Positions 51,179 to 53,825 of a stretch of 64,000 bases of DNA are shown here, piece after piece. The stretch's first letter is position 1. Every line of letters starts with the position of its first letter. The notes beneath the pieces are model-generated. The model was not told where the DNA came from. It made no database searches and worked only from the letters and a program-made list of their open reading frames with translations. This DNA is from Escherichia coli. Its GTDB lineage: Bacteria; Pseudomonadota; Gammaproteobacteria; Enterobacterales; Enterobacteriaceae. Where the stretch lies: assembly GCF_003018115.1 (NCBI RefSeq), contig NZ_CP027457.1; one strand, given 5' to 3'. The translations under genes were made by a program, and so were the position numbers.

Positions 51179-51631
51179 ATGATCTGGATAATGCTCGCCA
51201 CGCTGGCGGTAGTGTTTGTGGTTGGTTTTCGGGTGCTGACATCCGGGGCCAGAAAAGCGATTCGCCGTCTCAGCGATCGGCTGAATATCGATGTCGTACC
51301 CGTGGAGTCGATGGTCGATCAAATGGGAAAGTCAGCCGGTGACGAATTTTTACGTTATTTGCATCGTCCGGATGAGTCGCACCTGCAAAACGCCGCGCAG
51401 GTGTTGCTCATCTGGCAAATTGTCATTGTCGATGGTAGCGAACAGAACCTGCTGCAATGGCATCGGATTTTACAAAAAGCCCGCCTTGCCGCGCCGATTA
51501 CCGATGCTCAGGTCAGGCTGGCGCTGGGTTTTCTGCGCGAAACCGAACCTGAAATGCAGGATATTAATGCTTTTCAGATGCGCTATAACGCATTCTTTCA
51601 ACCTGCCGAGGGCGTTCACTGGCTGCATTAA
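51179..51631 (+). CDS. yicN: Uncharacterised protein YicN (DUF1198)
   Basis: ORF 51152..51631; from Met10 (AGGAG Shine-Dalgarno upstream): MIWIMLATLAVVFVVGFRVLTSGARKAIRRL..., 150 aa. Confidence 0.8.
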   Translation: MIWIMLATLAVVFVVGFRVLTSGARKAIRRLSDRLNIDVVPVESMVDQMGKSAGDEFLRYLHRPDESHLQNAAQVLLIWQIVIVDGSEQNLLQWHRILQKARLAAPITDAQVRLALGFLRETEPEMQDINAFQMRYNAFFQPAEGVHWLH

Positions 51632-51639
51632 AACCGCTT

Positions 51640-51705
51640 CGTCTTATCAGCCTACAGACCGCGCCTGACCTGTCGAGTGGATAAGGCGTTCACGCCGCGT
51701 CCGGT
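51640..51705. repeat. REP-like palindromic element(s)
   Basis: ggataaggcgttcacgccgcgtccgg and an adjacent cttatcagcctaca half-site, typical REP sequences downstream of yicN. Confidence 0.45.
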
Positions 51706-51746
51706 ATCGGAACTGACAGTAGGTGAACGCATTATCTACTTTCTAT

Positions 51747-52070
51747 TTACAGCAGCACATCCAGCCCGTGTTTTTGCACAATGCTGAGCAGTTTTAATGA
51801 AATGCCATTGGGGCGTTTAGCGCCACTTTCCCATTTTTGTACAGTTGAAACGCTGGTATTGAGATAGTGAGCGAAGACGGGCTGACTCACTTTTAATTTT
51901 TCCCGCAGTGCTTTTATCTCAACAGGTTGTAAGTCTTGCACGCTGGTCAGGCAGGCTTTGTCAAAAGTACGCATTGTTTCGGCAGAAATAGCATCGACGC
52001 TGGACAATCCAGCCGCTGCGCTGTGAATAGCCTCAAATGCAGGACTTTTAAATTTAGTTTTTGCAGTCAT
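51747..52070 (-). CDS. Putative antitoxin with C-terminal XRE-type HTH (HigA-like)
   Basis: 107-aa ORF MTAKTKFKSPAFEAIHSAAAGLSSVDAISAETMRTFDKACLTSVQDLQPVEIKALREKLKVSQPVFAHYLNTSVSTVQKWESGAKRPNGISLKLLSIVQKHG; its ATG overlaps the stop of the upstream 119-aa gene by 17 nt. Confidence 0.6.
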   Translation of the reverse strand: MTAKTKFKSPAFEAIHSAAAGLSSVDAISAETMRTFDKACLTSVQDLQPVEIKALREKLKVSQPVFAHYLNTSVSTVQKWESGAKRPNGISLKLLSIVQKHGLDVLL

Positions 52071-52413
52071 AGCAGATCTCTGTCAGTTCTTTAGTGTTAA
52101 TCATTGCTGTTAGCTGGGCTTTCGTCAGGAAGGCATAATGCTTTGCAAGTTCACGAAACCCAGCCAGTTCCTGACTATTGATGTTCGACATATCCTGTTT
52201 TGCATATAAAAACGTGTAAAACCAATTGCTTCCCCCTTTTGCCAGAATAATTGCACGCTCACGATTTTGGTGAAGGCGCTTTTTAAAAACGCCACCACCA
52301 AGTGCATCAGCTTTACCTTGCTCCGTTTCTAAAATGGCCCGGCACAACTCTTCATCTGTTATTGCATGAGACCTGGCTTCCCTTGCAAACCATTTGGTTT
52401 TAAACACGCGCAT
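52054..52413 (-). CDS. Putative type II toxin (RelE/HigB superfamily, Gp49-like), encoded upstream of its antitoxin
   Basis: 119-aa ORF MRVFKTKWFAREARSHAITDEELCRAILETEQGKADALGGGVFKKRLHQNRERAIILAKGGSNWFYTFLYAKQD...; small and basic, paired with an HTH partner in toxin-first order. Confidence 0.55.
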   Translation of the reverse strand: MRVFKTKWFAREARSHAITDEELCRAILETEQGKADALGGGVFKKRLHQNRERAIILAKGGSNWFYTFLYAKQDMSNINSQELAGFRELAKHYAFLTKAQLTAMINTKELTEICYDCKN

Positions 52414-52640
52414 ATCGTTGAGGTCCTATTATTAAAGTATATCACCAAGTGCAATACTTTATCCCTTATTCCCAACCCAATCGCGAAAATGCATATCAGC
52501 TTGCCCTATGATTTTTATTTCTTCGAGCAGCCTCGAACTTTTCCCACAACACCGTAAAAGTTGCAAAAACGTTAAATGCATCACACATTTCAATGTTAAA
52601 GTGGTCGGCTTTTCCCCTGAAACATGCCACGGGTAACACC

Positions 52641-53825
52641 ATGAGTGAATTTATTGCCGAAAACCGCGGCGCGGATGCCATCACCCGACCGAACTGGTCA
52701 GCCGTTTTCTCGGTGGCGTTTTGCGTCGCCTGTCTGATTATCGTTGAGTTTTTGCCCGTCAGTTTGTTGACGCCAATGGCCCAGGATTTAGGCATTTCGG
52801 AAGGGGTTGCCGGGCAATCGGTGACCGTGACCGCCTTTGTGGCAATGTTTGCCAGTTTGTTTATTACCCAGACAATTCAGGCCACTGACCGCCGCTACGT
52901 TGTTATTTTGTTTGCCGTTTTGCTGACGCTCTCCTGTTTGCTGGTTTCCTTTGCTAACTCATTCAGTTTGCTTTTAATTGGTCGTGCCTGTCTGGGGCTG
53001 GCGCTGGGCGGGTTCTGGGCGATGTCGGCGTCGCTGACCATGCGTCTGGTGCCGCCGCGTACGGTGCCGAAGGCGCTGTCGGTGATCTTCGGTGCGGTTT
53101 CTATTGCGCTGGTGATTGCCGCGCCGTTGGGCAGTTTTTTAGGCGAGCTTATCGGTTGGCGCAATGTCTTTAATGCGGCGGCGGTGATGGGCGTGTTGTG
53201 TATTTTCTGGATTATCAAATCATTGCCTTCGCTGCCAGGCGAACCCTCGCATCAGAAACAAAATACTTTCCGCTTATTACAACGTCCGGGTGTGATGGCA
53301 GGGATGATCGCCATCTTCATGTCTTTCGCCGGGCAGTTTGCTTTCTTCACGTATATTCGCCCGGTGTATATGAACCTGGCGGGATTCAGCGTGGATGGCT
53401 TAACGCTGGTGCTGTTGAGTTTTGGCATTGCCAGCTTTATTGGTACGTCGCTTTCGTCGTTCATTCTTAAACGTTCGGTAAAACTGGCCTTAGCAGGCGC
53501 GCCGTTAATACTGGCTGTGAGTGCGTTGGTGCTGACGTTGTGGGGAAGCGATAAAATCGTTGCGACCGGCGTGGCGATTATCTGGGGGCTAACTTTTGCA
53601 TTGGTTCCTGTCGGCTGGTCAACGTGGATCACCCGCTCACTGGCCGATCAGGCAGAAAAAGCCGGGTCTATTCAGGTGGCGGTTATTCAGCTTGCTAATA
53701 CCTGTGGCGCGGCAATCGGCGGTTATGCGCTGGATAATATTGGTCTGACTTCGCCGTTGATGTTGTCCGGCACATTGATGTTGCTGACGGCGTTATTGGT
53801 CACCGCAAAGGTGAAAATGAAGTAA
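52641..53825 (+). CDS. nepI: Purine ribonucleoside efflux pump NepI (MFS)
   Basis: ORF 52593..53825; from Met17 the product is [55 protein letters not shown]..., 12-TM MFS. Confidence 0.9.

Follow-up and report, generated by a model that had tools for sequence, protein, structure and literature searches.

Organization of the yicN-nepI locus

The locus described here lies in a stretch of 64,000 nucleotides of an Escherichia coli genome (contig NZ_CP027457.1), which we refer to in its full length as the window. Two small genes occupy the minus strand between yicN and nepI: a 119-aa ORF (52054-52413) is followed by a 107-aa ORF (51747-52070), each with an ATG start, and their coding regions overlap by 17 nt (52054-52070). 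The upstream gene ends in ...gag atc tgc tat gac tgc aaa aac taa, with the ATG of the downstream gene contained in 'tgc tATGac'. This pair of overlapping genes had been reported in an earlier sequence-only reading of the window, and the ORF list and direct reading of the sequence agree on it. Both flanking core genes are on the plus strand; yicN (DUF1198, 51179-51631) is convergent with the pair and its product is 100% identical to that of K-12, while nepI (purine ribonucleoside efflux pump, 52641-53825, start placed from the K-12 comparison) is divergent.

[quoted passage not shown] The upstream product is, as had been stated, small and basic (13.7 kDa, pI 9.2); the downstream product is likewise basic (pI 9.6) and contains the XRE-type HTH that had been noticed in it (residues 52-96, Pfam HTH_3, E 6.7e-8). 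An antitoxin homologue lies directly 3' of the toxin gene in 80 of 80 related loci, and the 17-nt overlap is common to nearly all Enterobacterales loci with intact genes. Given this overlap, translational coupling of the antitoxin to the toxin is likely. Taken as a whole, we put the probability that the pair is a two-gene type II TA operon of the HigBA-2/ToxP-AntitoxP family at about 0.85.

BLAST of the K-12 intergenic region delimited a variable segment of 840 bp (51707-52546) that is present in the window and absent in K-12-type genomes: positions 3-78 of the K-12 region correspond to 51631-51706 of the window and positions 120-216 to 52547-52643. The segment contains the two genes and their promoter only. 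In its place K-12 has 41 unrelated bases; this 41-mer matched none of the filled loci, and its origin was not found. We found no signs of a mobile element at the segment, i.e. no integrase, no transposase, no target duplication and, apart from a REP arm, no terminal repeats.

A REP/BIME-like cluster of inverted repeats (51630-51740) lies just 3' of the antitoxin stop codon. Its REP core, GGCGTGAACGCCTTATCC, is at 51679-51696, and two copies of this core occur in the window. The part of the cluster at 51630-51706 is common to K-12, and a degenerate inverted arm at 51723-51740, inside the variable segment, pairs with the REP at 51676-51693. The stretch 51675-51740 resembles the REP-derived Rfam family naRNA4, though below the threshold (32.2 bits, E 0.002), and the MFE fold contains a REP hairpin 3' of the antitoxin gene whose energy is not unusual when compared with shuffled sequences (z = -0.96). 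The module had been described as flanked by REP-like elements; this holds on the yicN side but not on the nepI side, where 52414-52546 contains the promoter, the operator and a short hairpin but no REP.

The toxin

The HMM search for toxin families that had been proposed as a check gave a full-length match of the upstream product to PF06296 (142.6 bits, E 8.8e-42; protein residues 1-113 on model positions 1-120 of 120), against a curated cut-off of 27 bits. Because the toxin matches the full model at this level, both genes are far beyond what chance would produce. V. cholerae HigB-2 (we used a sequence identical to PDB 5JA9_C) is also a member of PF06296, with 34.5 bits. The Pfam search returned no PF05973 (Gp49) match for the window toxin at E <= 1, and HigB-2 itself scores only 12.8 bits against PF05973, below the cut-off of 23.9. 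None of the NCBIfam or PADLOC models matched the toxin.

The AlphaFold model of the toxin (pLDDT 91.4) has the elements E2-6, H7-15, H20-31, E36-47, E52-59, E63-71 and H80-94, which is the beta1-alpha1-alpha2-beta2-beta3-beta4-alpha3 order of the RelE/BECR fold, followed by an extra helix (98-106) and strand (110-115). When this model was compared with the PDB using Foldseek, the top 11 matches were all V. cholerae HigB2 (probability 1.0, TM 0.54-0.63), and the next folds were S. pneumoniae HigB, Cami1, E. coli HigB and RelE. HigB-2 has no counterpart of the extra C-terminal helix and strand (residues ~98-115), so the details of neutralisation may differ from those in HigBA-2.

Direct sequence comparison of the toxin with HigB-2 was negative: phmmer of the toxin against the PDB and a narrow toxin profile against solved structures gave no matches, and hhalign gave the link to HigB-2 a probability of 3.6%. 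A broad profile that matched HigB-2 at E 2e-14 was discarded as circular, its alignment having included HigB-2; without HigB-2 it scored 10.4 bits. The link between the toxin and HigB-2 therefore rests on co-membership of the Pfam family, on the fold match and on a bridging pair from Coxiella (described below).

Residues R46, R53, Y70 and K72 of the toxin align with R51, R64, Y82 and K84 of HigB-2, which have been shown by mutation to matter for HigB2 (PMC5416850), and are its predicted catalytic residues. In 39 paired sequences R46, R53 and K72 are invariant, and position 70 is Y or F throughout the family. R2 is nearly invariant in the family, which favours the ATG at 52413 as the toxin start; this is likely to be the true start, rather than the GTG two codons downstream that was chosen by PGAP. 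Purifying selection acts on both genes, with dN/dS at 0.02-0.17 for the toxin overall (0.07-0.17 within Escherichia) and 0.00-0.30 for the antitoxin, where the value of 0.30 comes from one change of each kind.

The antitoxin

The antitoxin has a conserved N-terminal segment (residues ~8-40) and a C-terminal region (residues ~46-107) that, as judged from sequence and model, is a HigA-2-type XRE HTH predicted to serve in DNA binding and dimerisation. V. cholerae HigA-2 was its best PDB match both by sequence (phmmer against 5JAA_A, E 9e-10) and by fold, Foldseek placing the model of the C-terminal domain on that of HigA2 with an rmsd of 0.9-1.3 A over 63 residues at 40% identity. The N-terminal segment is the presumed toxin binder. 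It contains the motif FEAIHSAA.GL, which is invariant or nearly so in three proteobacterial classes, and in an AlphaFold model of a toxin-linker-antitoxin fusion it forms two confident helices (residues 10-24 and 30-40). The N-terminal 59 residues have no relatives in the PDB and no detectable similarity to the N-terminus of HigA-2; sequence comparison showed a resemblance to the N-terminus of AntitoxP.

We tried several other family assignments for the antitoxin and rejected them, since only its HTH part matches. It falls below the thresholds of the MqsA family (PF15731, 26.2 vs 30 bits; TIGR03830, 41 vs 61.8 bits) and, with its single cysteine, does not have the zinc-binding CxxC...CxxC N-domain of the MqsA type. 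Similarly, only the HTH region aligns with NadS (NF041265, 41.3 bits vs a cut-off of 60) and with YiaG (NF007481, 29.2 bits vs a cut-off of 110). The second gene, whose annotation is limited to 'HTH domain-containing protein', can be named as the cognate antitoxin, of HigA2/AntitoxP type.

Promoter and candidate operator

An inverted-repeat search identified an imperfect palindrome of 29 bp (52433-52461) upstream of the toxin gene as a candidate operator. Its 15-bp core, TTGCAC-TTG-GTGATA (52440-52454), is a degenerate version of the family consensus TAGCAC-N3-GTGCTA. The motif GCAC-N3-GTG[CA] occurs ~40 nt 5' of the toxin start in 70 of 81 loci, as compared to 0.02 expected per 150 nt, and these 70 loci span alpha-, beta- and gammaproteobacteria. 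In the 64-kb window the candidate operator is the sole site of its kind.

A strict scan of 51600-52700 for two-hexamer consensus promoters and for terminators found nothing, and because of this the promoter is one that we infer, by eye and from conservation: a putative extended -10 element on the minus strand, TGaTATACT (52436-52444), with the TG at 52444-52443 and the -10 hexamer at 52441-52436. It overlaps the right half of the candidate operator, and an equivalent TGcTATAGT is kept in other loci. A Shine-Dalgarno-like AGGA (52424-52427) was read on the minus strand 10 nt 5' of the toxin ATG; 'ACAGGA' is kept at this place in other loci. The predicted transcription start is near 52429. At the level of sequence features, a single palindromic operator placed over the -10 would give the layout of an autoregulated operon, and the mapped HigA2 operator also overlaps its -10 (PMC11006873). 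The operator motif and the extended -10 promoter are directly testable predictions.

Distribution and origin of the module

Of 5426 complete E. coli genomes, 1715 (32%) carry the module, and the K-12 yicN-nepI spacer is 210 bp long with no such genes, which upholds the view that the module is strain-variable and absent from K-12. The additional claim of the sequence-only reading, that it looks like an accessory insertion, was not supported by the analysis. According to that explanation the module arrived recently and horizontally in a yicN-nepI spacer that was ancestrally short, and K-12 retains the original state. In its favour, only about a third of E. coli genomes are carriers, and close relatives of the module are mobile: one cluster, with members from different bacterial families at a dS of only 0.17-0.26, is located in an island that also encodes an integrase, an AAA_25 protein and a SIR2-HerA system, and relatives were found on 183 plasmid records. 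Furthermore, neither the E. albertii nor the E. fergusonii reference genome is among the best 80 loci, and in an NJ tree of 226 concatenated residues the nepI-linked lineages do not form one clade, their monophyly not being resolved. However, the pair adjoins nepI in the same orientation in cryptic lineages of Escherichia, six Klebsiella species, Citrobacter amalonaticus, an Enterobacteriaceae genome and Salmonella. Between these genera the dS of the module is saturated (at least 1.9), like that of nepI and yicN (1.2-2.3), and within Escherichia the values are comparable (0.16-0.26 for the module vs 0.30-0.43 for nepI and yicN). A recent insertion would also be at odds with the lack of mobility genes, target-site duplication and terminal inverted repeats, and with the 41 unrelated bases that replace the segment in the K-12 allele. 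We therefore regard a recent insertion as improbable.

Ancient residence followed by loss fits better, because of the shared synteny, the saturated dS, the absence of mobility signs and the 41 bases in K-12; for the direction of change the argument depends on synteny and dS. In Enterobacteriaceae the module has probably resided on the chromosome beside nepI for a long time and been lost since from about two thirds of E. coli strains, among them K-12, whose 'empty' site is probably the product of such a loss. A stronger version of this reading is a tentative one to which we would not commit ourselves, namely that the module is an unusually old, vertically inherited TA system that stood beside nepI before Escherichia, Salmonella, Citrobacter and Klebsiella split and is now being lost stepwise in E. 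coli. If this were true, the locus would offer a natural series of the decay of a TA system into an orphan regulator, the kind that YiaG may be.

Decay of the toxin gene

If the absence of the module is read as loss, three steps of it can be seen in E. coli: deletion of the whole segment in about two thirds of strains, loss of the toxin start codon, and stop or frameshift lesions in some lineages. The toxin ATG is absent, having become ATA, in 630 of ~1706 carrier genomes (~37%), including O157:H7 and O145:H28, and toxin activity is therefore clearly dispensable in E. coli. In E. coli AR Bank #0349 there are three lesions in the toxin gene and none in the antitoxin gene, and Mixta, Lonsdalea and Winslowiella combine a truncated toxin with an intact antitoxin. 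In decaying modules, then, it is the toxin that breaks first and the HigA2-like repressor that is kept. The O157:H7-type allele, with its toxin gene lacking a start codon, is relevant to counts of 'functional' TA loci in pathogenic E. coli.

These observations raise the question of whether the copy in the window is itself a spent addiction module, with a toxin that is inactive or barely made and an HTH protein that acts as an ordinary transcription factor. Apart from the start-codon loss and the stop and frameshift lesions beside intact antitoxin genes, this would be in keeping with the frequency of truncated or frameshifted toxin variants in public data, with the better conservation of the antitoxin (about 80% vs 70% for the toxin) and with the retention of the orphan relative YiaG in E. 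coli K-12 (PMC11980606). Nevertheless, the window copy has both the ATG and the Shine-Dalgarno-like AGGA, its toxin keeps every invariant or nearly invariant residue of the family, including all four of those predicted to be catalytic, and purifying selection acts on the toxin within Escherichia. An ordinary transcription factor also sits poorly with the lack of a second operator-like site in the window. We consequently give the idea of a spent module little credence for this strain, and prefer an intact TA operon.

Proposed mechanism and role

We propose that one promoter, the putative extended -10 element, would serve both genes, the toxin gene being transcribed first. By analogy with HigB-2 and ToxP, the toxin with its RelE/BECR fold would most likely enter the ribosomal A site and cut mRNA under translation by means of R46, R53, Y70 and K72, so that protein synthesis would stop. 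The conserved N-terminal helices of the antitoxin would bind and silence the toxin, and its XRE HTH would dimerise and bind the single palindrome over the -10, leading to self-repression of the operon. Searches by locus, locus tag and accession found no study of the E. coli module in the literature. Homology is the basis on which we predict that the toxin is toxic and cuts RNA, that the antitoxin neutralises it and represses the operon, and that the module may serve in stabilisation, stress response or phage defence. Purifying selection on both genes and the toxin-first pattern of decay lend indirect support to the predicted toxicity, ribosome-dependent mRNA cleavage and antitoxin rescue.

A target other than translating mRNA, e.g. 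DNA gyrase as in the ParE branch, would be compatible with the PGAP name 'RelE/ParE family', which leaves the two activities undistinguished. However, the toxin has no Pfam ParE (PF05016) match, its nearest folds are HigB2, HigB, Cami1 and RelE with ParE structures ranking far lower, the RelE-type R/R/Y/K site is kept, and ToxP, the nearest relative to have been assayed, is an inhibitor of in vitro translation, all of which makes such a target very hard to credit. Anti-phage abortive infection, in which the toxin would be freed when a phage shuts off host expression, is a candidate for the main job of the module, in place of locus stabilisation or stress response. In Enterobacter sp. 10-1 and its relatives the pair lies at the margin of an island that carries an integrase, immediately beside a SIR2-HerA defence system; a review of the RelE/ParE superfamily counts many such toxins as defence toxins (PMC11980606); and the antitoxin matches the phage family phrog_2104 (E 1.9e-26). 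Yet the neighbours at this locus are core transport genes and not defence genes, PADLOC has no model that matches the toxin, and 50,697 phage records contained no real phage-borne copies, the single match being a Salmonella chromosomal contig. In addition, the tested relative ToxP/AntitoxP serves plasmid maintenance, and the frequent loss of the module and inactivation of its toxin in E. coli argue against a strong current benefit. Phage defence as the main function is therefore unlikely.

Comparison with known systems

The closest experimentally characterised relative is ToxP/AntitoxP (CBUA0028/CBUA0027) of the Coxiella burnetii plasmid QpH1. ToxP is 33% identical to the window toxin over its full length, including the C-terminal extension, and AntitoxP is 55% identical to the window antitoxin in an alignment of 104 residues that takes in the N-terminal segment (E 1e-36). 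ToxP has been shown to be toxic and to act as an inhibitor of translation, and AntitoxP to rescue from it, to bind ToxP and to bind PtoxP in EMSA (PMC10098735). The toxin gene comes first and the genes overlap in both pairs, although the overlap is 4 nt in Coxiella and 17 nt here. PtoxP has the palindrome TTCAC-TTA-GTGAT in the same place as here, between a TTGACA -35 and a TATAGT -10. The systems differ in that ToxP/AntitoxP is plasmid-borne and serves plasmid maintenance, whereas the window module is chromosomal and lies between core genes, and in that ToxP keeps a long Gly/Lys-rich beta2-beta3 loop (GKGKRGG) that the E. coli toxin does not have.

V. cholerae HigBA-2 (VCA0468/0469; PDB 5JAA, 8A0X) belongs to the same toxin family, PF06296, and is the best structural match. 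It too has the toxin gene first and a catalytic set (R51, R64, Y82, K84) that is matched here, and HigA-2, like the window antitoxin, consists of an N-terminal toxin-binding segment (here presumed) and a C-terminal XRE HTH dimer domain. A single inverted-repeat operator lies over the -10 in both, the one in the window being a candidate. On the other hand, HigB-2 is only ~20% identical to the window toxin and is invisible to phmmer or to a profile built without it, the HigBA-2 operator TGTACGC-N5-GCGTACA differs from the window palindrome, and HigBA-2 is a superintegron cassette whereas the window module is in a core-genome spacer.

The 'relE-yiaG' modules described by Gerdes (mBio 2025, PMC11980606) have, as here, a PF06296 toxin 5' of a YiaG/HigA2-like HTH protein, and in the model of their antitoxin a C-terminal HTH is preceded by two N-terminal helices that are joined to it (PMC11980606); two N-terminal helices are likewise given by our fusion model. 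The toxins highlighted among them differ from the window toxin, which starts straight at strand beta1, in having long disordered N-terminal extensions. K-12 YiaG matches the window antitoxin in the HTH part alone.

The two proteins of the Salmonella pair are 70% and 80% identical to those of the window; the pair is located beside nepI/yicS, next to a PTS/aldolase operon, and its other neighbour is not yicN. From the gene order of LT2 we take its position to be that of STM3777-STM3778. These genes have been listed as a RelE-superfamily TA, but the sole open paper that names them has been retracted (PMC3868539) and serves as a lead only.

E. coli K-12 HigBA (ygjN/ygjM), Rts1 HigBA, Gp49-type HigB and MqsRA share with the window module a toxin-first order, a RelE-superfamily toxin and an HTH antitoxin. 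However, their toxins belong to PF09907, PF05015, PF05973 and PF15723, none of which is matched by the window toxin, and in fold E. coli HigB matches much more weakly (E 0.06, TM 0.31). A. baumannii HigBA2 was considered as a relative and set aside as Gp49-type and not relevant. Of the two kinds of system that had been named for the pair, higBA is therefore the appropriate one, specifically in its HigBA-2/ToxP (PF06296) form, and the Gp49/PF05973 kind is not. At least 1000 contigs in public databases carry exactly this toxin protein, under the name 'RelE/ParE family toxin' or 'addiction module toxin RelE'. The pair is in this sense an ordinary, already annotated RelE-superfamily type II TA system of a known kind, and it could be said to matter little beyond bookkeeping, the family already having solved structures and tested members.

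The gene pair and its reading frames

In the ORF table the two minus-strand genes between yicN and nepI are ATG-started frames of 119 aa (toxin, 52054..52413) and 107 aa (antitoxin, 51747..52070). Base-by-base reading places the toxin stop at 52054-52056, after ...E-I-C-Y-D-C-K-N, and the antitoxin ATG at 52070, 17 nt inside the toxin frame; the coordinates, lengths and overlap in the sequence-only reading were exact. That reading had also described a basic upstream product and an XRE-type helix-turn-helix (HTH) in the downstream one, and both descriptions hold: the toxin has a pI of 9.2 (the antitoxin, at 9.6, is basic too), and the HTH occupies antitoxin residues 52-96. PGAP models a toxin of 117 aa from a GTG (52407), two codons past the ATG (52413), and does so also where a strain has the ATG. 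The ATG is the likely true start, because R2 is nearly invariant in the family and codon 3 is Ile, i.e. not a start codon, in many genera. The toxin gene also contains an inverted repeat (52267-52301; 17-nt arms, 82% complementary, 1 nt apart), which spans the codons of the conserved motif GGGVFKKRL and gives a spurious sub-threshold miRNA match in Rfam.

Family and fold of the toxin and antitoxin

The toxin matched the whole of Pfam model PF06296 ('RelE') with 142.6 bits (E 8.8e-42, cut-off 27). This was its only Pfam match, with none to Gp49 (PF05973), ParE (PF05016) or other HigB families, and no NCBIfam or PADLOC model covered it. The suggested comparison with toxin HMMs thus yielded a toxin family, but not Gp49. 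V. cholerae HigB-2 (sequence identical to PDB 5JA9_C) also falls in PF06296, more marginally (34.5 bits, model positions 8-96). Outside Pfam the two toxins are too distant for sequence methods: neither phmmer nor a narrow profile matched the toxin sequence to a solved structure, and hhalign against HigB-2 gave 3.6% probability. A broad-profile match to HigB-2 was discarded as circular, as the profile contained HigB-2; without it the score was 10.4 bits.

Predicted structure lends independent support to the kinship with HigB2. When an AlphaFold model of the toxin (44 diverse relatives, mean pLDDT 91.4) was compared with the PDB, the eleven best fold matches were all V. cholerae HigB2 (probability 1.0, TM 0.54-0.63, identity ~20%), followed by S. 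pneumoniae HigB, Cami1, E. coli HigB and RelE. Mutation of HigB2 R51, R64, Y82 and K84 cuts activity 170- to 3000-fold (PMC5416850); these residues align with toxin R46, R53, Y70 and K72, of which R46, R53 and K72 did not vary among the sampled family members. Compared with HigB2, the toxin is predicted to have an additional C-terminal helix (98-106) and strand (110-115). These belong to the PF06296 model, which makes HigB2 the atypical short member.

By sequence, the closest relative of the antitoxin with a solved structure is V. cholerae HigA-2, matched over residues 46-102 (E 9e-10). In a toxin-linker-antitoxin fusion model built from 39 paired sequences, the antitoxin C-terminal domain superposed on that of HigA2 at 0.9-1.3 A with 40% identity, and two confident helices were predicted at the antitoxin N-terminus. 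No solved relative was found for the N-terminal 45 residues, which contain an invariant motif, FEAIHSAA.GL. Identification of the antitoxin as MqsA, NadS or YiaG was rejected, since the HTH part alone matched and scores were below the cut-offs.

Pairing, selection and decay

Relatives were present in 498 of the 100,044 species genomes scanned, and in all of the best 80 loci, which were retrieved, an antitoxin homologue lay directly downstream of the toxin. Across Enterobacterales the gene lengths (119/107 aa) and the 17-nt overlap hardly vary. Purifying selection acts on both genes: dN/dS is 0.02-0.17 in the toxin and 0.00-0.30 in the antitoxin (0.30 representing one change of each kind). The antitoxin is the more conserved throughout the loci (other Enterobacterales match the window copy at ~80% identity for the antitoxin and ~70% for the toxin), which is unusual for toxin-antitoxin pairs. 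This higher conservation goes with deep conservation of the operator motif.

A decaying module loses its toxin first, the asymmetry to be expected if the toxin is active and its antidote essential. Truncated toxins accompany intact antitoxins in Mixta theicola, Lonsdalea quercina and Winslowiella. Three independent lesions have hit the toxin of E. coli AR Bank #0349 (locus L087, 901-1575): loss of the start (ATG to ATA), a stop at W8 (TGG to TAG) and a deletion of 1 nt that yields ...MITLKN*. PGAP annotates this toxin as a pseudogene with a frameshift, while no lesion affects the antitoxin ORF that overlaps it. Public E. coli protein records also commonly contain toxin variants that are truncated or frameshifted. 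The O157:H7 toxin start (52411-52413 in the window) is ATA rather than ATG, and an exact 31-mer at this position in complete E. coli genomes has ATG in 1076 and ATA in 630 (O157:H7, O145:H28 and others), so that the native toxin start is missing from ~37% of carriers.

Candidate operator, putative promoter and flanks

The candidate operator is an imperfect 29-bp palindrome (52433-52461), 20-48 nt upstream of the toxin ATG. Aligned upstream regions of related loci share a family motif, TAGCAC-N3-GTGCTA, at about -40. Of 81 gamma-, beta- and alphaproteobacterial loci, 70 contain GCAC-N3-GTG[CA], for which chance would give 0.02 occurrences per 150 nt, and the other loci mostly have one-mismatch variants. 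The Escherichia version, TTGCAC-TTG-GTGATA (52440-52454), is the single such site in the 64-kb window. Its right half overlaps an extended -10 element, TGaTATACT (TGcTATAGT in other genera). Because a strict promoter scan returned nothing at the module upstream region, this promoter is put forward as putative.

The module had been described as flanked by REP-like elements, and this applies to the yicN side but not the nepI side. The yicN side carries a REP core (51679-51696), linked inverted repeats (51640-51648, 51676-51693 and 51723-51740) and a sub-threshold match to the REP-derived family naRNA4 (51675-51740); the stability of the cluster hairpin is not unusual. Most of the cluster is also present in K-12 and the last degenerate arm alone lies within the variable segment, which places the left breakpoint inside the cluster. 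Between the module and nepI, a ~30-nt box (AAAGTTGCAAAAACGTTAAATGC..., ~52557-52586) is 90-97% conserved in Klebsiella and Citrobacter, unlike the rest of that spacer, and is probably a nepI regulatory site. nepI is annotated at two lengths (1185 and 1191 nt) among L001, L002, L087 and L088, and the annotation of O157:H7 PV15-279 (L002) gives a frameshifted adeQ upstream of yicN.

Distribution and origin of the empty site

The whole region is present in 1715 of 5426 complete E. coli genomes, and nearly all of the others have the K-12-type short spacer, in which 41 unrelated bases replace an 840-bp variable segment (51707-52546). The module had been taken for an accessory insertion absent from K-12; it is indeed strain-variable, but its linkage to nepI across genera and saturated dS fit loss better than insertion. 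The order nepI-toxin-antitoxin-yicN, in unchanged orientation, recurs in two Escherichia lineages outside E. coli proper, six Klebsiella species, Citrobacter amalonaticus and one further Enterobacteriaceae genome, and the Salmonella pair likewise adjoins nepI. Between these genera (Escherichia, Klebsiella, Citrobacter and Salmonella) module dS is at least 1.9 and that of nepI and yicN 1.2-2.3, both saturated, and within Escherichia module dS is similar to that of nepI and yicN. No duplication, terminal repeat or mobility gene was found in the variable segment or at its junctions.

The module family does move horizontally. A cluster from the unrelated families of Pectobacterium, Serratia, Erwinia, Edwardsiella and Enterobacter has module dS of only 0.17-0.26 and occupies an island that also encodes an integrase and an AAA_25 protein, beside a SIR2-HerA system. 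In Enterobacter sp. 10-1 (L009, 1826-9837) and related loci L007, L008, L013, L023 and L024, the module edges a conserved block with the integrase (PF12835) and AAA_25 gene; in L009 a SIR2-like protein, a HerA-like ATPase and a Tlde1-domain protein come next. Homology between genomes of this cluster usually stops at the antitoxin stop. Unlike these, the nepI-linked copies look vertically inherited, because of their synteny and their nepI/yicN-like dS. The empty site in E. coli is thus most simply a deletion, although our neighbour-joining tree is too short to prove this or vertical inheritance.

E. coli GF130 (L003) has a different deletion, which takes out the spacer together with the 5' portion of nepI, and its nepI is annotated as partial with the N-terminus missing. 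Erwinia mallotivora contig_45 (L023, L034) carries two module copies ~13 kb apart. Two ~1-kb contigs of a MAG labelled Collinsella sp. Map_57_008 (L005, L045) also carry the module: one has E. coli-like flanks (toxin 97% and antitoxin 99% identical to the window, yicN 100% over 34 aa), and the other is K. pneumoniae-like, with the same identities to the window as L046 and adjacent to it in the tree. Their presence in an actinobacterial MAG is almost certainly bin contamination.

Comparison with known systems

tblastn of plasmids gave relatives in 183 records, 19 of them Coxiella; in E. coli the module was on plasmids in 0 of 5406 places. The two best 'plasmid' matches in PLSDB, NZ_CP141089.1 (4.94 Mb) and CP125156.1 (5.37 Mb), are of chromosomal size despite being filed as plasmids. 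The closest tested relative is ToxP/AntitoxP of Coxiella plasmid QpH1 (Nine Mile); K79 of the toxin found on this plasmid corresponds to the active-site lysine given for ToxP (PMC10098735). The window toxin and ToxP share 33% identity over the full length, including the C-terminal extension, and the antitoxin and AntitoxP share 55%, including the N-terminus (E 1e-36). ToxP is toxic and blocks translation in vitro, AntitoxP rescues, binds ToxP and binds the promoter, and the module maintains the plasmid (PMC10098735). The Coxiella promoter (TTGACA-17 nt-TATAGT) has TTCAC-TTA-GTGAT inside its spacer. The mapped HigA2 operator (PMC11006873) is, like the candidate operator here, one inverted repeat that extends across the -10.

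Our own results concern family, fold, catalytic residues, pairing, operator motif, selection and decay pattern; the mechanism is drawn from ToxP/AntitoxP and HigBA-2. By this analogy, one autorepressed promoter would give a bicistronic toxin-antitoxin mRNA, and the toxin would enter the ribosomal A site and cut mRNA. The antitoxin would bind the toxin through its N-terminal helices and, as an HTH dimer, the palindrome over the -10; its loss would free the toxin. Possible roles at the yicN-nepI locus are stabilisation, stress response or phage defence.

At least 1000 public contigs encode exactly these toxin and antitoxin proteins, named there 'type II toxin-antitoxin system RelE/ParE family toxin', 'addiction module toxin RelE' and 'HTH domain-containing protein', and our literature search found no paper on the E. 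coli yicN-nepI module. The family is already known from crystal structures and two tested members. A 2025 superfamily survey described this pair type as 'relE-yiaG' modules, noting a HigA2-like HTH and predicting that antitoxin N-terminal helices contact toxin C-terminal helices (PMC11980606). Nothing about the E. coli module departs from this known kind.
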